Origin: a virus
Taxonomy: Duplodnaviria; Heunggongvirae; Uroviricota; Caudoviricetes
Virus record (IMG/VR): IMGVR_UViG_2563366829_000015
Length of the DNA stretch: 7,395 nucleotides
Direction: 5' to 3' (one strand)
Part shown: in pieces, positions 1-7,395 of the stretch
How the letters are laid out: every line of letters begins with the position of its first letter
How positions within the stretch are numbered: position 1 is the stretch's first letter
The notes under the pieces: generated by a model
The model's database searches: none
The model's input: only the letters and a program-made list of their open reading frames with translations
Told to the model about the DNA's origin: nothing
Position numbers and translations under genes: made by a program

Positions 1-1131
1 TCAAATGACCAGTTTTTTCCACTCCTTACCGCGTACATCGTTGTAAATATCGGTCATTTTTTGATTCGAATGGCCTAGCAAAATTTTGGTATCAACCCCC
101 TGCTCTCTGAACAATCGCTCTGATAAAGATCTCTGCTCATGGAAAGAGGGTGGGGTGCCATTAGCACGCCAGTTGTAATCCACAGAATCCCGGGCTTTTT
201 TAAATGCAACGGTTAATGTTGCTGGCTTAACCATCCCGCCGCGCTTAGCTGTCCCTTTCGCGTGATGGTGGTGCAATAGCCACGGACTAAGAACGCAATC
301 GCGGCAGGATGACACTACATCATCCAGGGTGAGATTTAATTTATCGCAACGCAGAGCCAGAGGGATGGCAATCCGGGTTCCTGTTTTTTGCTGTTCGACA
401 TGAAGATAACCATCCCGGATATCCGAAAATTGCATTTTGCAAATATCTGAAAGGCGCTGGCCTGTCATCAGTGCCAGCAGCATACCGCGCTGTAAAAAGT
501 AACCATTCTTTTCCGCTGCGTTATAAATCATCATCCACTCATCAAAAGTCAGTCGCTGTCTTGATATCCGCACCTGCGGTTTTTTTGCCGATTCTGCAGG
601 GTTAAAGCCTGGCGGGACATCGCCCGTTTGCTGAGCTTCCCGGAAAACATCGATCAGTACTTTCCTGAAAATTTGTCCCATTCTGTTATGTCCTCTGGCC
701 TTGTACTCTTCCAGTACTGATACCACATCTTTTACGGTTATGGCATCTAACGGTCTGGTGCCAAAACGTTCATCAAATACCCTGAGAGGGGCCGCTTTCT
801 GTTTCAGCGTGTTGAGTTTGATCTCGCCGTTTTCATATCTTTCCTGTTGAATTTTTCTGTAATTATTCAGAAAAATGGTAACGGTTGATGAACCGCCGGT
901 ATCACTAATAATTTTCTCCTGCAGACTGAGCATTTGTTCCATTTGCTGCCGGGCAAGACGGCTGTTCGCTTCTGCTGCAATAGTTTCTGCCAGTTTCTGG
1001 TCAATACTGCCGAGACCGTGATTTTTGCCTGTTATGGGATGCCTGTAACGCCAGTAAACTTTGTTATTTCTTTTGTCAAAATACGGAGATAATCCCGGAA
1101 CATCGGTTTTATATTTTCGCGGGCGCGCCAT
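1..1131 (-). CDS. int: Lambda-family tyrosine integrase (site-specific recombinase), 376 aa, apparently complete
   Basis: ATG at 1129-1131 (minus) and stop at 1-3 (minus-strand TGA). The translation matches the lambda Int C-terminal catalytic region in pattern: DGYLHVEQQKTGTRIAIP, PPSFHEQRSLSERL (H-x-x-R box), LLGH, and a candidate nucleophile Tyr in TDIY. Gene order int-xis with a 23-nt overlap is as in lambdoid phages. The attachment site would lie left of the window and is not visible. Confidence 0.92.
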   Translation of the reverse strand: MARPRKYKTDVPGLSPYFDKRNNKVYWRYRHPITGKNHGLGSIDQKLAETIAAEANSRLARQQMEQMLSLQEKIISDTGGSSTVTIFLNNYRKIQQERYENGEIKLNTLKQKAAPLRVFDERFGTRPLDAITVKDVVSVLEEYKARGHNRMGQIFRKVLIDVFREAQQTGDVPPGFNPAESAKKPQVRISRQRLTFDEWMMIYNAAEKNGYFLQRGMLLALMTGQRLSDICKMQFSDIRDGYLHVEQQKTGTRIAIPLALRCDKLNLTLDDVVSSCRDCVLSPWLLHHHHAKGTAKRGGMVKPATLTVAFKKARDSVDYNWRANGTPPSFHEQRSLSERLFREQGVDTKILLGHSNQKMTDIYNDVRGKEWKKLVI

Positions 1132-1357
1132 CTTCCAGTATCCTCTTCAAAGCAGGGTGATCTGTGGCGATCACCTCCGGCTTGTTTACCATTCCGACAA
1201 AGCGAGCTTGCGGATCCACTCGCCAGCGTCTTCCAACTTTTTTGGGGAGAGGAAATATCATTCCGGCTTTAGCGTATTTACTTAACGTACTCGGAGTAGG
1301 GACCGGTTCACTGAATTCCTCTTTTGCCCACTCAGTGAGCAGAATAAGTCTTGCCAT
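1109..1357 (-). CDS. xis: Excisionase (Xis-like winged-helix DNA-binding protein), 82 aa
   Basis: ATG at 1355-1357 (minus); the 3' end overlaps the int start by 23 nt. Motifs LLTEWAKEE and MIFPLPKKVGRRWRV resemble lambda Xis (LTLQEW / RIFPPPVKDGREY). The Shine-Dalgarno is weak. Confidence 0.8.
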   Translation of the reverse strand: MARLILLTEWAKEEFSEPVPTPSTLSKYAKAGMIFPLPKKVGRRWRVDPQARFVGMVNKPEVIATDHPALKRILEDGAPAKI

Positions 1358-1421
1358 GAGCGTCGTTCGCTAATCATGGTCGCCGCCACTATAGCTGGTG
1401 GGCAACGACCGGGGTTGAACA

Positions 1422-3893
1422 TTAAAAATCAGCCTGATTTGGGATCAGTTTTTGCCAGATAGCTGAAACGTATTTTGCCTGGTAACGGGCGTCATCAAGT
1501 GCATTATGGCGCTCACCTTCGAATGGAATAGCCGTTCTGGCATCGAAGTCTATGGCTTTCCCCAGCTCAACGATTGTGCGTACATCGCGATCGTTGTAGT
1601 AACGCCACGGGCAGGGGATCCCCTGCCGTTCGTATGAACGGCGCAAAATCGTGTTGTCGAAGTTGGCTCCATTTCCCCAAACCTGAACAAAAAATTCACC
1701 GGAGTTTTCGTCGATAAATTCCCGCAATTGTAACAGTGCATCATCTAACGGGATTTCATCGGTCATAATGGCAGATTGCGCTTCGCGTGATTGCTTAAGC
1801 CACCATTTAATGGTGTCCCGATCAATGACCCCGCCAGCAGTTTCCAGATCGATAGTCTTACTAAATTCCGGTCCCATATCTCCGGTTTGCGGATCGAAAA
1901 ATATTGCACCTATTGAGATGATCGGGGCATCAGGATTTTTTCCCATGGTTTCAAGGTCGATCATTAGATGGTCACACGTCCTGCTGGTGGATGTGATTTC
2001 TTGATGACCGTTCACCTTAATTGAGTGATCTGCCGTCTCGCCAGTTTCATTATCGCTATCGTGATGCTGATTGCCGCCAGTGTTCTCCTTGTGTGGATGT
2101 TCAGCGCCTTCCATTTCCTCCGGATCATCTTCCTGAACTTCAGGCTGATACTCTTCATCGAATGTTTCCTGGTATGTTGCGTCGCCCATTACCGCGCCAC
2201 AATCAGGGCAGTTGCCGCCGCCGGTCTGACCGCAGGCGGTGCAGACTTTTTCCACTTCCTGTTGCGCCACTGATTCAGGCTGTTTCGTTTCTGGCTCGTT
2301 TTGTAACGCATTTGGGCTGTTTTGTTCCGCTTTCTGGTCGTTCTGTTCCGTTTCTTGCTGGTTCTGGTTCACAGAATCGCGGGTCTGGTTCCCCTTAACC
2401 CATTTCGGATCATTCGGGTCGCTAATCCCTTCAACAAATTCACCACGTGATACTGCAAGCAGTTCATCGGCGTCAGGCTGGCTGATATTGGCTGCCTGCA
2501 TAATTTTGTTTACTTCGTCAGCGGTAACTTTTACTGACCCTGGTTGTGCGGTCGTGTCAGATGCACCAGTATTTTGTTGTGAACCTGAGTATGTACCGTT
2601 TTTGCGGGCGAAATATTCTTCTTTCGTGATTTCAGTAGCCCCAGCAGACAGCGCCTTATCCAGACCAGAAAGTTTGTTTGCGCGACCGTATTTTTCGCCA
2701 TCCTTGTCGGTGAAGAGGAAGTAGAACGGCCCCTCACGTTCTACAGATGGTTCGACTTCCACTTTGCATTCGGTTTTTTCGTTGTCCGGAATTGCCGTTT
2801 CCACTGCATCAGTTTCTGGTACTGGCGACGAGAGAGTATCAGTTGCGCTCTGATTTGTTCCTTCATCTTCAAACACGCCCTTTGTAGTCAGGTATTCAGT
2901 AATGTATTTGTTCAGTGCCACAGGGTCTTTGTGAATGTCGATCGGACGTTCACGGACAAGGCCAAAAATAGTCTGGCGGTCGTAGCGAAGGGCATCAGGC
3001 TGTTTGCGCATTGATGCCGAGATACGCTTCCAGTCTTCGCGGTCGTTGTCGATAACTTCATTTTTTGCCCAGCGATGGATGCTGCCGTCAATGTTTCCGG
3101 CATCCACATCACCAGGCCAGAGAGCGTAGGCCAGTTCGTCATCCAGTGTTTTCCATGTCTGCTTGTATTCGCGATGAATGGCAGCAATGACCGGGTTGAT
3201 TTTTCCTGTTGAATTTTCAGTGTGCTGTTGATTGGCTCTGGCGCGGGCGAGATCAACAACAGACGTGTATTTTCCGGCTTCCTTGCGTTCACCTTCGCGA
3301 CGTTTTTTCCAGATGCGCATCTCTGCCTGAATTTCGGGCCATTTGGCACCAGGCTTACATTTATGCTTAACCCACCCGATGGCATGCAGCTTAAGCTCCG
3401 GATACATGGCGTTAACTTCTGGCATTTTCATCAACGCTTCAACGATATGTCCGTCGAATGTTGCCATGTCTTCCTGCAACAGTTCCTGCGCGCTAATCAC
3501 CATATCAACGGTGATGTTTTCACATGTGTCGAACTTAACCATGACAGCGTTCTGTACTTCAGGGGCCAGCTTGTCAAAAGTGACGTTCATCGGATCTGAT
3601 TCAGTCTCAACCGGGACAAAGGAAGCAGACGCCTCATCCCAGCGGTTTTCCTGCATATATTCAGCATCCCAGGAATCTAGGGCAGGGCGGGGTATACCGG
3701 GTTTATCCTCGCAGACAAGAAATTTATAAGCGCAGTCCTGAGCAGCCGGATAATGTTCCAGGAATTGCCAGTGAAATTTTGCGCGGGCGCGACGTTCATC
3801 ACCGGCTTCAATGGCAGTGGCTACAGCGACTGCACCTTCTTCCTTTATTGCCTGTTCGTCCGGAATGGCGGCGCAAATAAAGACTTTACTCAT
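1422..3893 (-). CDS. Large multidomain prophage exonuclease, 823 aa: N-terminal region of unknown fold, Q/N/E-rich linker, CxxC-x7-CxxC zinc ribbon, acidic linker, C-terminal DnaQ-like DEDDh 3'-5' exonuclease domain
   Basis: ATG at 3891-3893 (minus) with a GAGGT SD about 9 nt upstream. The C-terminal ~184 aa (nt ~1425-1976) carry the three DEDDh motifs: Exo I MIDLET, Exo II GNGANFD, Exo III HNALDDARYQAKY. The zinc ribbon CTACGQTGGGNCPDCG is at nt 2202-2243. The position, directly upstream of xis-int, is where lambdoid prophages carry exo/recE-type genes. Whether the N-terminal ~500 aa relate to the RecE (exonuclease VIII) N-terminal region cannot be decided without a search. Confidence 0.88.
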   Translation of the reverse strand: MSKVFICAAIPDEQAIKEEGAVAVATAIEAGDERRARAKFHWQFLEHYPAAQDCAYKFLVCEDKPGIPRPALDSWDAEYMQENRWDEASASFVPVETESDPMNVTFDKLAPEVQNAVMVKFDTCENITVDMVISAQELLQEDMATFDGHIVEALMKMPEVNAMYPELKLHAIGWVKHKCKPGAKWPEIQAEMRIWKKRREGERKEAGKYTSVVDLARARANQQHTENSTGKINPVIAAIHREYKQTWKTLDDELAYALWPGDVDAGNIDGSIHRWAKNEVIDNDREDWKRISASMRKQPDALRYDRQTIFGLVRERPIDIHKDPVALNKYITEYLTTKGVFEDEGTNQSATDTLSSPVPETDAVETAIPDNEKTECKVEVEPSVEREGPFYFLFTDKDGEKYGRANKLSGLDKALSAGATEITKEEYFARKNGTYSGSQQNTGASDTTAQPGSVKVTADEVNKIMQAANISQPDADELLAVSRGEFVEGISDPNDPKWVKGNQTRDSVNQNQQETEQNDQKAEQNSPNALQNEPETKQPESVAQQEVEKVCTACGQTGGGNCPDCGAVMGDATYQETFDEEYQPEVQEDDPEEMEGAEHPHKENTGGNQHHDSDNETGETADHSIKVNGHQEITSTSRTCDHLMIDLETMGKNPDAPIISIGAIFFDPQTGDMGPEFSKTIDLETAGGVIDRDTIKWWLKQSREAQSAIMTDEIPLDDALLQLREFIDENSGEFFVQVWGNGANFDNTILRRSYERQGIPCPWRYYNDRDVRTIVELGKAIDFDARTAIPFEGERHNALDDARYQAKYVSAIWQKLIPNQADF

Positions 3894-3985: not shown

Positions 3986-4177
3986 TTAAAGACCTGCCGG
4001 GATTTCGTTATTATCCTGGTGAATGACTTTATCGACCGGGTAACAGTTACCGGGAATTTTCTGTTCGGTTGCTGCAGTCACACACTCCTGCATTGTCCTG
4101 TGAACACTGACTGCAATATCAACTGGCTCTCCGGAAACAAGAAAAACTGTCAGAACAAGTGCAAATGCTGTATTCAT
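3986..4177 (-). CDS. ydfD: YdfD-like small membrane-anchored lysis protein, 63 aa
   Basis: ATG at 4175-4177 (minus) overlaps the dicB stop (ATGA, translational coupling), with an AAGGA SD about 8 nt upstream. N-terminal hydrophobic helix (NTAFALVLTVFLVSG) followed by a soluble Cys-containing tail. Size, position directly downstream of dicB and sequence agree with my recollection of Qin-prophage YdfD. The ORF track's longer 81-aa version (start 4231) has a poorly spaced SD. Confidence 0.72.
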   Translation of the reverse strand: MNTAFALVLTVFLVSGEPVDIAVSVHRTMQECVTAATEQKIPGNCYPVDKVIHQDNNEIPAGL

Positions 4178-4362
4178 TGTGCACATCCTTTTTGTATCGG
4201 ACGTAAACGGGCCAGCATTGAAAGAATGCATATTTTATTTAATAACTCCCGTTCGTGTTTTCTCTTGTTAATGGCATCTTCAGTAAATACAGGGTTACTG
4301 ATAGTGACACCAATTTCAAAACAACCTTCAGACGTATTAACGTTTGGTAATAACGTTTCCAT
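4174..4362 (-). CDS. dicB: DicB cell-division inhibitor (MinC-dependent FtsZ-ring inhibitor), 62 aa
   Basis: ATG at 4360-4362 (minus) with a GAGGA SD 7 nt upstream. The sequence METLLPNVNTSEGCFEIGVTISNPVFTEDAINKRKHERELLNKIC...KGCAQ matches my recollection of E. coli DicB almost residue for residue, and the gene lies directly downstream of DicF as in the dicBF operon. Confidence 0.88.
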   Translation of the reverse strand: METLLPNVNTSEGCFEIGVTISNPVFTEDAINKRKHERELLNKICILSMLARLRPIQKGCAQ

Positions 4363-4545: not shown

Positions 4546-4598
4546 GGGCGGCAGAGCAGTCACGGAGTAAAACTGATACCGCCAAATGTCACCAGAAA
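4546..4598 (-). ncRNA. dicF: DicF small regulatory RNA (Hfq-dependent sRNA processed from the dicB operon transcript; represses ftsZ and other mRNAs)
   Basis: The minus strand reads 5'-TTTCTGGTGACATTTGGCGGTATCAGTTTTACTCCGTGACTGCTCTGCCGCCC-3' followed by T5 (plus 4541-4545 AAAAA). This matches the 53-nt DicF RNA as I recall it, with possibly one substitution, and it sits ~180 nt upstream of dicB. The exact ends are taken from memory of the K-12 RNA and could be off by a few nt. Confidence 0.8.
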
Positions 4599-4933
4599 AT
4601 TGATAACAGAGGGCGTTGTAGCGGGGTTGTCACTTAAGCGTATGGTCAACCTGACAACCCGGTGCATTTTCTGGAGCAATGGAGGAAACCCCAGCCATAC
4701 TTACCGCCGCGCCATTTCGCGGAGTGCCACAACCGGAAGCGCACGGTCGAACTAAATTTAACGACACCGTACAGAGAGACCAATTTCGCCGTGCGCTTTC
4801 GCGTTATGCCCTGACTTTTCAGGGACATATCCTTTCAGTAAACTGTCAGTGCCGGATGCTCACCCGTGTCCGGCGCACGCACTCCACCTGACCAGTGGAG
4901 AACTCCTTAATTACCAACCCTCAGGAGGGTGAA

Positions 4934-5212
4934 ATGGATAAAAAGCAAATTGAGGCCCTGCAATCTATTATTGAAGAACAAGATGAAGCTATCAGGATTC
5001 TTTCATATCGCACTGATATGATACTAAATATGCTTTCTGCATTAACGGCTGCGCTTGGTGGTACAAAAACAAACGTATACCGCGAAGTTGTTATTCAACA
5101 GATAGATAAATTTGAAAAAACCATACCAGGTATTAATGCTCATCTTGCAGAACAAGAGAAAGACCATGCTCTTATGGCAATTTCTTCAGTAGCTCTCCCG
5201 AAAGTTGAGTAG
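4934..5212 (+). CDS. Hypothetical protein, 92 aa, acidic/helical, opposite-strand insert within the early-left operon
   Basis: ATG at 4934 is preceded by a perfect AGGAGG SD (4922-4927, 6-nt spacer). It is the only plus-strand gene among the minus-strand neighbours. No recognisable catalytic or transmembrane motifs. The ORF track's upstream GTG start (4895) lacks an SD. The local sequence is visibly more AT-rich than the flanks. Confidence 0.6.
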   Translation: MDKKQIEALQSIIEEQDEAIRILSYRTDMILNMLSALTAALGGTKTNVYREVVIQQIDKFEKTIPGINAHLAEQEKDHALMAISSVALPKVE

Positions 5213-5573
5213 TTTTAATTGTTGTTTTGAAATAATCACTGCTTTCACATTTGAGTGATTTCATGGCAATCCAAATGCGGGCCTCTGTGCCTGCATTTGG
5301 TTCCAGTTGCTGTAGACGTTTTGCGTCTTCCAAAAGTAAGGCGATAATGTGTTTCAGCTTCTCATCATTTGCTTGATTCTTGTTTTCAGGCGAATTCTGT
5401 CCGCCGAATAGGCGCTTCTCTTCATACAGACCTATAAAGGCACGACGCACGTTACCGGATATAGTATCGATGGTTTCCTTTTCTACAGTACTCAGGTCAA
5501 GAGTCGCCAGTTGAGAGCGAACCACATTCGCTGCCATTTCCTGGAATGGCATTGGTAAATCTTTAAATTCCAT
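5172..5573 (-). CDS. Hypothetical protein, 133 aa, soluble, co-directional with the early-left operon
   Basis: ATG at 5571-5573 (minus) with a GAGG SD 6 nt upstream, 22 nt after the stop of the upstream 72-aa ORF. No recognised motifs. The 3' end overlaps the 3' end of the convergent 92-aa ORF by 41 nt (5172-5212). Confidence 0.65.
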   Translation of the reverse strand: MEFKDLPMPFQEMAANVVRSQLATLDLSTVEKETIDTISGNVRRAFIGLYEEKRLFGGQNSPENKNQANDEKLKHIIALLLEDAKRLQQLEPNAGTEARIWIAMKSLKCESSDYFKTTIKTTQLSGELLKKLP

Positions 5574-6951: not shown

Positions 6952-7188
6952 ATGAACTTAAGAGACTATTTAAAAGAGAAACATATCACCCAGCTACAGT
7001 TTGGGAAGCTAACGGGTTTATCTCAGGTGCATGTAAGTCGAGTGCTGGGGGGCTATGAAAGATTCAGCCCTGAAAAAGCATTACGTGTTGCTGAAGTAAC
7101 GAATTTCGAGGTTACACCTCATGAACTCCGGCCTGATATTTACCCGAATCCAACCGACGGCTTACCTGTTGGATTCAAGGCTAACTGA
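6952..7188 (+). CDS. Cro/DicC/YdaS-like HTH regulator, 78 aa, 3' end abutting or interrupted by an IS element
   Basis: ATG at 6952 with a GAAGG SD 6 nt upstream; the ORF track's TTG at 6946 is less likely. HTH-like segment ITQLQFGKLTGLSQVHVSRVL. It is divergent from the repressor. The stop codon TGA at 7186-7188 coincides with the first three bases of the IS terminal inverted repeat. Confidence 0.75.
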   Translation: MNLRDYLKEKHITQLQFGKLTGLSQVHVSRVLGGYERFSPEKALRVAEVTNFEVTPHELRPDIYPNPTDGLPVGFKAN

Positions 7189-7395
7189 ACCGCCCCGGGT
7201 TTCCTGGAGAGTGTTTTATCTGTGAACTCAGGCTGCCAGATCATCGTTTCCGATGGAAGCATAATAAGCTTTTTCTGCTTCTGCCGGAGGAGTATGGCCC
7301 AGCCTTTCCAGCAATCGTCGATTGTTATACCAGTCCACCCACGTGAGTGTGGCCAGTTCCACTTCTGCACGGTTTTTCCAGCTCTTACGGTGTAT
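7186..7395 (-). mobile_element. IS3-family insertion sequence (IS629/IS1203-like), partial: right terminal inverted repeat plus 3' end of the transposase gene; continues beyond the window
   Basis: Plus strand from 7186 reads TGAACCGCCCCGGGTTTCCTGGAGAGTG, which matches my recollection of the terminal inverted repeat of the IS629/IS1203/IS3411 group (IS3-family TG...CA termini). Directly inward is a transposase C-terminus on the minus strand. Confidence 0.75.
7228..7395 (-). CDS. IS3-family transposase (OrfB / rve integrase-core) C-terminal fragment, 5'-truncated by the window edge
   Basis: Manual minus-strand translation gives ...SWKNRAEVELATLTWVDWYNNRRLLERLGHTPPAEAEKAYYASIGNDDLAA* with the stop at 7228-7230. 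This is the conserved C-terminal end of IS3-family transposases. The frame has no Met in the window, so it is absent from the ORF track; the track's 7140-7370 ORF is a different frame. Confidence 0.8.
   Translation of the reverse strand: MHRKSWKNRAEVELATLTWVDWYNNRRLLERLGHTPPAEAEKAYYASIGNDDLAA

Follow-up and report, generated by a model that had tools for sequence, protein, structure and literature searches.

A 7,395-nucleotide (nt) stretch of DNA from a virus of the Caudoviricetes (IMG/VR virus record IMGVR_UViG_2563366829_000015), referred to here as the window, contains the gene for an 823-amino-acid (aa) exonuclease next to the xis and int genes of a lambdoid prophage. Sequence comparisons show that the gene product is a three-part mosaic composed of a YdfE-type N-terminus, a middle region homologous to RecE of the Rac prophage, and a C-terminal DEDDh nuclease domain, referred to as the head. 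The absence of an annealing protein is a property of this DEDDh architecture. Taken as a whole, our account of a RecE-body/DEDDh mosaic whose 3'-end processing is linked to host RecBCD/Chi recombination has, in our judgment, an even chance of being correct.

The complete exonuclease gene occupies positions 1422..3893 on the minus strand, with its stop codon at 1422-1424. The list of open reading frames (ORFs) and the translation gave an 823-codon ORF that begins with ATG and has no interruption, and PHROG 2082 ("exonuclease") covers residues 1-823 of the 823 residues of the product. An earlier note, made from the letters of the window alone, had described this ORF together with the motifs MIDLET, GNGANFD and HNALDDARYQAKY and a zinc ribbon, CTACGQTGGGNCPDCG, and the translation bears out each of them.

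The DEDDh nuclease head

The identity of the head as a DEDDh domain with an intact catalytic pentad is near certain. The domain belongs to the DnaQ-like, Rv2179c/DexA family of 3'-5' exonucleases and extends over aa 642-813 (1455..1970, minus strand), as defined by Pfam, a match to the structure 8KEL, alignment, AlphaFold2 and Foldseek. The Pfam model PF16473 (Rv2179c-like 3'-5' exoribonuclease domain) matched aa 642-813 with an E-value of 1.4e-67 and 227.2 bits against a cut-off of 27, and the match took in profile positions 2-177 of 177. The translation of the minus strand contains the Exo I motif MIDLET (aa 644-649; 1947-1964), the Exo II motif GNGANFD (aa 740-746; 1656-1676) and the Exo III motif HNALDDARYQAKY (aa 796-808; 1470-1508). 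These complete the catalytic pattern, with D-x-E in Exo I, D in Exo II and H-x4-D in Exo III, and the catalytic residues D646, E648, D746, H796 and D801 were invariant in an alignment of nine sequences (the window protein, T4 DexA and seven homologs).

Structure prediction by AlphaFold2 was run on two pieces of the protein, aa 1-470 and aa 440-823, and the predicted local distance difference test score (pLDDT) was 90-98 over about aa 639-819. A Foldseek search of the Protein Data Bank (PDB) with the C-terminus returned T4 DexA (8KEL) as the top match (E=1.9e-11), with RNase T and further DEDDh enzymes ranked below it; a PD-(D/E)XK or lambda-Exo fold was not among the matches. The only solved structures matched by sequence were 8KEL and 8KEN, both of T4 DexA, and the PD-(D/E)XK model PF12684 had no match in the window protein. 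The Pfam search, structure prediction and Foldseek thus agree with the earlier note, which had assigned the C-terminus to the DEDDh 3'-5' type rather than to PD-(D/E)XK or lambda-Exo.

T4 DexA shares the fold and the catalytic pentad of the window head and is its best PDB match by both sequence and structure, although the two are only about 25% identical. The T4 enzyme, a 3'-5' DNase, has roles in intron homing (double-strand-break repair) and host DNA breakdown. EcD, an Escherichia coli homolog of DexA, protects cells and digests DNA, that of T4 included (Kang et al., 2025; PMC12153337). Both DexA and EcD are stand-alone proteins of approximately 180-230 aa, whereas the window domain stands at the end of an 823-aa scaffold. 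From its family membership, the head is predicted to have 3'-5' exonuclease activity.

The RecE-like body, zinc ribbon and N-terminal domain

The earlier note had set the protein apart from RecE; instead, approximately 360 aa, including the zinc ribbon, are homologous to Rac RecE. BLASTP against K-12 Rac RecE aligned aa 262-625 (2019..3110, minus strand) to RecE residues 278-591 with an E-value of 9e-61, and the homology was also seen with the NF007259 model and at the DNA level. About aa 470-625, including the ribbon and the acidic linker, are nearly identical to RecE, and recE has 77% DNA identity to nt 1425-1867 of the gene. The match to NF007259 (exonuclease VIII equivalog) was limited to aa 246-625 and, at 273.7 bits, fell below the cut-off of 1269. 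RecE itself consists, by Pfam, of PF06630 at aa 2-178 and the PD-(D/E)XK domain PF12684 at aa 615-850. The two proteins are similar in overall size and both have a long non-catalytic body with a C-terminal nuclease, but the RecE head is PD-(D/E)XK (5'-3') and the window head is DEDDh (3'-5'), and the N-terminus of RecE is PF06630 whereas that of the window protein is of the YdfE type.

The zinc ribbon, CTACGQTGGGNCPDCG, has the form CxxC-x8-CxxC and lies at aa 551-566 (2196..2243, minus strand); its counterpart in RecE is CNACGQTGGDNCPDCG at RecE 518-533. AlphaFold2 gave the ribbon a modest pLDDT and did not pack it on the DEDDh domain, which begins approximately 75 residues downstream, and the flanks of the ribbon are predicted to be disordered (pLDDT <50). 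The description of the ribbon in the earlier note stands as to motif and position, but its suggested insertion in the DnaQ fold was rejected because the ribbon lies upstream of that fold, is separated from it by disordered linkers and is common to RecE. The ribbon is an element of the RecE body. The linkers described in that note also were found: aa 501-550, before the ribbon, contain 18 Q/N, and aa 551-600 contain 14 D/E and no K/R. The acidic, low-complexity linker between ribbon and head comprises aa 567-640 (1974..2195, minus strand), as defined by composition and a pLDDT of <50.

Within aa 1-470, AlphaFold2 predicted three confident units with disordered sequence between them: domain A (aa 1-205; 3279..3893, minus strand), a YdfE-type alpha/beta plus helical unit with a pLDDT of about 90; a helical domain B (aa 245-340); and a small beta/alpha domain C (aa 388-432). 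Domains B and C belong to the RecE-homologous region, as do the Q/N-rich linker, the ribbon and the larger part of the acidic linker. Fold searches of the aa 1-470 units against the PDB and BFVD gave no significant match. Pfam found no match to PF06630, the RecE N-terminal domain, in the window protein, and remote homology between the YdfE and RecE N-termini was rejected (hhalign probability of 2%). A precomputed Pfam list for homologs P0001-P0120 includes PF27430 and PF27432, which presumably correspond to the N-terminal and middle regions.

The first 256 aa of the window protein match the product of ydfE, a pseudogene of the K-12 Qin prophage, at 96% identity. The context in Qin is the same (dicF, dicB, ydfD, ydfE), but ydfE is truncated by IS2 (locus L003, 5079-5999) whereas the window form is intact. 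By this comparison, K-12 ydfE is the N-terminal 256 aa of a window-type exonuclease that was cut by IS2, and the window form shows what the pseudogene once encoded.

Exchange of heads and the neighboring genes

Homologs were obtained by a search of 1.8 billion cluster representatives and then characterized with Pfam. All four combinations of N-terminus and head exist: a PF06630 N-terminus with a DEDDh head (PF16473; proteins P0123, P0126, P0133 and P0136), a YdfE-type N-terminus with a DEDDh head (the window protein), a PF06630 N-terminus with a PD-(D/E)XK head (RecE), and a YdfE-type N-terminus with a PD-(D/E)XK head (PF12684; P0140 and L016). The head of P0123 is 99% identical to the window head despite its RecE-type N-terminus, a sequence identity that points to a recent exchange of heads.

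The relation between head and neighboring genes was surveyed at 178 loci from IMG/VR, GTDB genomes and phage records, with long proteins classed by their domains; 171 loci were classed, 129 with DEDDh heads and 42 with PD-(D/E)XK heads. Each locus was probed for RecT/Bet, Erf, Rad52-like and Sak4 proteins. A single Rac RecT seed for phmmer missed divergent RecT proteins beside proteins with a YdfE-type N-terminus and a PD-(D/E)XK head, which Pfam caught, and the final probe was a hidden Markov model. A RecT-family gene was next after the PD-(D/E)XK head at 40 of 42 loci, and at both exceptions the contig ended 2 nt past the gene. None of the 129 DEDDh-head loci had an annealing protein of these families (RecT/Bet, Erf, Rad52-like or Sak4), SSB, Gam or Abc2. 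The upstream neighbors followed the same division, with dicB and ydfD present at 121 of 129 long DEDDh loci vs. 0 of 42 PD-(D/E)XK loci. Among upstream ORFs conserved on the same strand, 20 clusters were selected from those with a length of at least roughly 200 aa and scanned with Pfam or PHROGs, and no annealing family was detected; the clusters comprised repressors, AbiH, Rha, a methyltransferase and about ten without assigned function.

Because no DEDDh locus has an annealing protein, the absence belongs to the architecture and not to a local deletion; simple loss of an annealing-protein gene in the window was rejected on the same counts (0 of 129 vs. 40 of 42). The statement in the earlier note that the window lacks an annealing protein can thus be made general, and such a gene is not found adjacent to the exonuclease gene in related loci either.

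Some relatives have no Pfam-recognized C-terminal nuclease. Proteins P0129, P0137, P0151 and P0156 (700-790 aa) and the product of locus L100 5992-8367 have the YdfE-type N-terminus and the middle region only, and they may be the "RecE-2" proteins without a nuclease domain described by Zheng et al. (2025; PMC12315714). In L100, the gene after this relative encodes a Sipho_Gp157 family protein.

Selection and abundance

Every folded part of the protein is under purifying selection. The ratio of nonsynonymous to synonymous substitution rates (dN/dS), calculated from 78 unique alleles, was 0.24 for the whole gene. It was 0.165 for the N-terminal domain (aa 1-255), 0.31 for the middle domain (aa 256-370), 0.10 for the zinc ribbon (aa 551-570), which was the most constrained segment, and 0.22 for the DEDDh domain (aa 641-823); the folded parts thus range from 0.10 to 0.31. 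The acidic linker (aa 571-640) was nearly neutral at 0.84.

DNA coding for the DEDDh domain was present in 4,064 of 5,426 complete E. coli genomes (75%), with 8,102 occurrences in total and a maximum of 7 in one genome, and a single protein cluster at 90% identity had 23,183 member sequences. Lineages with as little as about 45% identity retain the architecture. The gene also is present in the sequenced phage genomes mEp460_ev081 and vB_EcoS-813R8.

Chi sites

Zheng et al. (2025, Genome Res.; PMC12315714) showed that correctly oriented Chi sites are abundant in lambdoid phages that lack a Rec module and that RecBCD improves the growth of one of them, phage LLS. Chi density differed in the same direction among our loci. 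On the late-gene strand, long DEDDh loci had 0.33 Chi per kilobase (kb), compared with 0.06 on the opposite strand, and loci with stand-alone, LLS gp34-like nucleases had 0.33 and 0.03, respectively. The values were 0.037 and 0.004 for RecE/RecT loci and 0.004 and 0.002 for loci with stand-alone, mEpX2-like nucleases. The whole prophage (L008) and mEp460_ev081 each had 7 Chi on the late-gene strand vs. 2 on the other, with about 0.56-0.9 expected per strand. The Chi richness of the prophage fits the Chi-rich class without a Rec module of Zheng et al. (2025; PMC12315714).

One Chi site of the window, GCTGGTGG on the late-gene (plus) strand at 1983..1990, covers codons S635-T636-S637 and sits exactly at the joint of the RecE-like scaffold and the DEDDh head. 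Of 128 long DEDDh genes, 121, with both N-terminal types among them, carry it at this codon offset. A recombination hotspot at the junction of the swap may have promoted the exchange of heads. The 64 nt that separate the exonuclease gene from xis contain a second Chi site (1394..1401, plus strand), and a Chi site occurred at most 120 nt downstream of the stop codon at 34 of 124 loci.

Stand-alone relatives of the head

The nucleases epsilon34 gp34, mEpX2 gp32 and LLS gp34 belong to the same family as the window head, with 56-61% identity to aa 640-818. They are stand-alone proteins of 182-190 aa, whereas the window protein has 640 additional N-terminal residues that are partly RecE-derived. 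Zheng et al. (2025; PMC12315714) reported DnaQ-like nucleases inside some Rec modules, for example that of epsilon34; in epsilon34 and mEpX2, the family is found within modules that contain Erf/Rad52-like, SSB, exo and Abc2 genes. At mEpX2-like loci, where the gene is within such modules, an annealing protein was present at 74 of 80 and Abc2 at 79 of 80.

Phage LLS resembles the window more closely. Its gene 34, a "DnaQ-like exonuclease" whose product is 58% identical to the window head, is directly upstream of xis-int like the window gene, with no annealing or anti-RecBCD gene and with the same 0.33 Chi/kb. Among LLS gp34-like loci, 79 of 80 lacked an annealing protein or anti-RecBCD gene, and the nuclease gene was 196-303 nt upstream of the int ORF. 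Two genes upstream of the DnaQ-like gene, LLS gene 37 (L186, 5801-6340) encodes a putative deoxyribonucleoside 5'-monophosphate phosphatase, and a nucleotide-turnover setting for the stand-alone form is possible.

As to whether homologs ever occur with an annealing protein, a point raised in the earlier note, the answer differs by form: the long DEDDh form never did so in the survey, but the stand-alone, mEpX2-like form usually did. The suggestion in the same note of a role outside recombination does not follow, given that the same DEDDh family occurs in the epsilon34 and mEpX2 modules. The particular functions that it names, namely host-nuclease interference, superinfection and replication, are candidates.

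Genomic setting of the exonuclease gene

The host element is an E. coli prophage integrated next to ompW. The exonuclease gene is the last gene before xis-int in the early-left (PL) operon of this Qin/mEp460-type lambdoid prophage; the gene order is repressor, ydfA, ydfB, ydfC, DicF RNA, dicB, ydfD, exonuclease, xis and int. Downstream of the exonuclease stop codon, after the 64-nt spacer, is xis (excisionase; 1109..1357, minus strand; PF07825 and the annotation of the nearest genome), which is overlapped by int and takes the position that recT has in Rac. Directly upstream and in the same operon are ydfD and dicB (3986..4362, minus strand; ydfD 3986-4177 as annotated, dicB 4174-4362; PF07358, PF05358 and annotation). 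The ORF list, Pfam and annotation therefore place xis and ydfD/dicB on the two sides named in the earlier note. The DicF small RNA gene (4546-4597, minus strand) was matched over its full length by Rfam RF00039 with 77 bits and is upstream of dicB, as in the dicBF operon of K-12 Qin. In the Rac prophage, recT is next to recE, kilR and racC are in the operon and the loci are Chi-poor; in contrast, the window has no recT, has dicB and ydfD, and belongs with Chi-rich loci.

No promoter-like or terminator-like sites above chance separate the exonuclease gene from the rest of the operon, and transcription is therefore predicted to come from PL and to occur in lytic growth only. The neighbors of the gene, ydfD/dicB and xis-int with no SSB, Gam or Abc2, do not fit the definition of a Rec module given by Zheng et al. 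(2025; PMC12315714). SSB, Gam, Abc2 and annealing proteins were neither annotated nor detectable in the full 50-kb prophage of the nearest genome, and none of the four was detected in the complete genome of phage mEp460_ev081, which has a copy 95.7% identical to the window protein in the same gene context.

Proposed role and alternatives

In the role that we propose, the protein would be produced only in lytic growth, from PL. The head would remove nucleotides from DNA ends with a free 3'-OH by two-metal catalysis through D646, E648, D746, D801 and H796, a polarity opposite to that of RecE. The RecE-type scaffold and the ribbon would bring the head, by way of the flexible acidic tether, to the substrate or partner of RecE, presumably linear double-stranded DNA ends or replication intermediates. 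No phage annealing protein would be fed; rather, the activity would serve phages that need host RecBCD-Chi-RecA recombination to make concatemers, either by the trimming or blunting of 3' tails, which would let RecBCD load, or by clearing recombination intermediates of 3' flaps or non-homologous 3' ends. The RecBCD-accessory role of the exonuclease is a tentative part of the proposal, and we consider its contrary rather more likely.

Several points weigh against this proposal. Zheng et al. (2025; PMC12315714) did not count the "sporadic" DnaQ-type genes near int as recombination genes, and 3'-5' single-strand exonucleases usually hinder recombination instead of promoting it (PMC12315714). Rv2179c, the founder of the Pfam family, is an RNase, so an RNA substrate is possible. 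The association with Chi is a correlation and could reflect only the missing Rec module, with the role of the nuclease unrelated to it. The targeting role of the scaffold is conjectural because the N-terminal 470 aa have no recognizable fold relative. The survey loci are mostly close E. coli prophage relatives, and the counts of 0 of 129 and 40 of 42 do not represent independent events.

An anti-phage or superinfection-exclusion nuclease similar to HREX, encoded by an accessory (moron) gene near int and degrading incoming DNA such as the 5-hydroxymethylcytosine-modified DNA of T-even phages, is an unlikely alternative that nevertheless has specific support. EcD provides a precedent because it digests T4 DNA and protects cells (PMC12153337), the int-proximal site is typical of accessory genes, the kind that Zheng et al. 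(PMC12315714) left out of their recombination genes, the neighbor DicB itself protects against some phages, and the domain coding sequence is in three-quarters of complete E. coli genomes in up to seven copies each. However, the residues that define HREX and EcD are not those of the window head, where W152 of DexA is replaced by Y766 and D169 by A780, and D90 of DexA, which forms the tetramer and is lost in the HREX type, is kept as D718; both comparisons are weak tests that depend on an alignment of 25% identity. The PADLOC defense models had no match to the window protein. The gene should be silent in lysogens, because it follows the toxic dicB deep within the repressed PL operon and no separate promoter for it stood out above chance. 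A defense function also accounts for neither the conserved RecE scaffold nor the Chi association. Bulk nucleic-acid turnover with no role in recombination, either host DNA scavenging, the classical role of DexA, or 3'-5' exoribonuclease activity, appears improbable. The Pfam family takes its name from the RNase Rv2179c, an exoribonuclease is implied by the NCBI product name, and RNA or short oligonucleotides are the substrates of the structural neighbors RNase T, oligoribonuclease and ERI; moreover, DexA takes part in scavenging of host DNA, and the putative phosphatase gene of LLS is two genes upstream of the DnaQ-like gene. Degradation of the host chromosome, however, is not known for temperate lambdoid phages, and the fusion to a RecE scaffold, the mutual exclusion with recT and the presence of the same family in Erf-SSB-Abc2 modules point to DNA-end transactions. 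The absence of any recombination role is disfavored because the association with Chi and RecBCD points to recombination by the host pathway.

The position of the gene, which is that of recE/exo, and older annotations as exodeoxyribonuclease VIII would agree with an ordinary RecET/Red-type exonuclease whose annealing partner was deleted or is elsewhere in the prophage. We consider this very improbable: the fold and polarity of the head are wrong for such an enzyme, the whole-protein score against NF007259 is 274 against a cut-off of 1269, and an annealing protein is absent from the 129 loci, the whole 50-kb prophage and the complete mEp460_ev081 genome, with xis only 64 nt downstream. Equally hard to credit is the view that the gene is a relic without function, which arose by accidental fusion and persists in decaying prophages by hitch-hiking. 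In favor of this view, K-12 ydfE is cut by IS2, a premature stop codon interrupts the copy in the nearest genome and the prophage carries an IS3 insertion. Against this, purifying selection acts on the folded segments and spares only the nearly neutral linker, the catalytic residues are invariant, and the architecture persists to about 45% identity and in phages mEp460_ev081 and vB_EcoS-813R8.

The proposal of 3'-end processing linked to RecBCD and Chi can be extended, although the extension is doubtful and more speculative than its parts. The RecE body would be a portable module that targets nucleases of either polarity to DNA ends or replication intermediates. The DEDDh form and its stand-alone, int-proximal homologs such as LLS gp34 would be dedicated accessories of a second recombination strategy, which would combine no annealing protein, no RecBCD inhibitor and many oriented Chi sites with a 3'-5' exonuclease that conditions ends or intermediates for RecBCD-RecA, and the Chi site at the joint may have promoted the head swap.

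The first approximately 560 residues of RecE have had no assigned function for decades, yet this body enhances linear-linear recombination, including recombineering (PMC11611040). Its maintenance by purifying selection together with a nuclease of opposite polarity and without RecT implies that the job of the body is independent of 5'-3' resection or RecT loading. For the Chi-rich, RecBCD-aided lambdoid phages that lack a Rec module, the exonuclease is a candidate gene and the only recognizable DNA-processing enzyme that their early-left operon retains. The main value of the analysis is a testable lead on the RecE body and on the use of RecBCD by these phages. It also allows annotation to be corrected, as the gene is variously named exodeoxyribonuclease VIII, exonuclease or 3'-5' exoribonuclease. 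The domain itself is already annotated by Pfam, PHROG 2082 and NCBI, and DnaQ-type genes beside int in lambdoid phages have been reported (PMC12315714), making the finding less novel than the earlier note implied. In the literature that we read, we found neither a description of the abundant 800-aa "exonuclease" as a RecE body whose head has been exchanged nor the strict rule relating head to neighboring gene nor membership in the Chi-rich class, and Zheng et al. (2025; PMC12315714) do not describe a RecE-body/DEDDh fusion.

Other features of the window

The best-matching genome, NZ_CP146681.1, differs from the window at only two bases, positions 3476 and 1830. The difference at 3476 (G3476A on the plus strand) makes Q140 a stop codon, and RefSeq flags that copy as a pseudogene whereas the window copy is intact. 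Several late genes of the NZ_CP146681.1 prophage also are flagged as frameshifted.

The right end of the window (7228-7395) is inside a transposase gene of the IS3 family (L001, 19228-20441). The IS3 element lies just after a cro-like (YdaS-family) gene, which it separates from ydaT and the replication genes. In most other genomes the match to the window stops at position 7185, so the insertion is restricted to a few strains; it probably cripples the prophage.

Two overlapping, opposed hypothetical genes, at 4895-5212 (plus strand) and 5172-5573 (minus strand), encode ORFs of 105 aa and 133 aa that RefSeq annotates as hypothetical, the first of them from a later start. The pair is located between the DicF RNA gene and ydfC, and one of the two genes opposes the direction of the operon.

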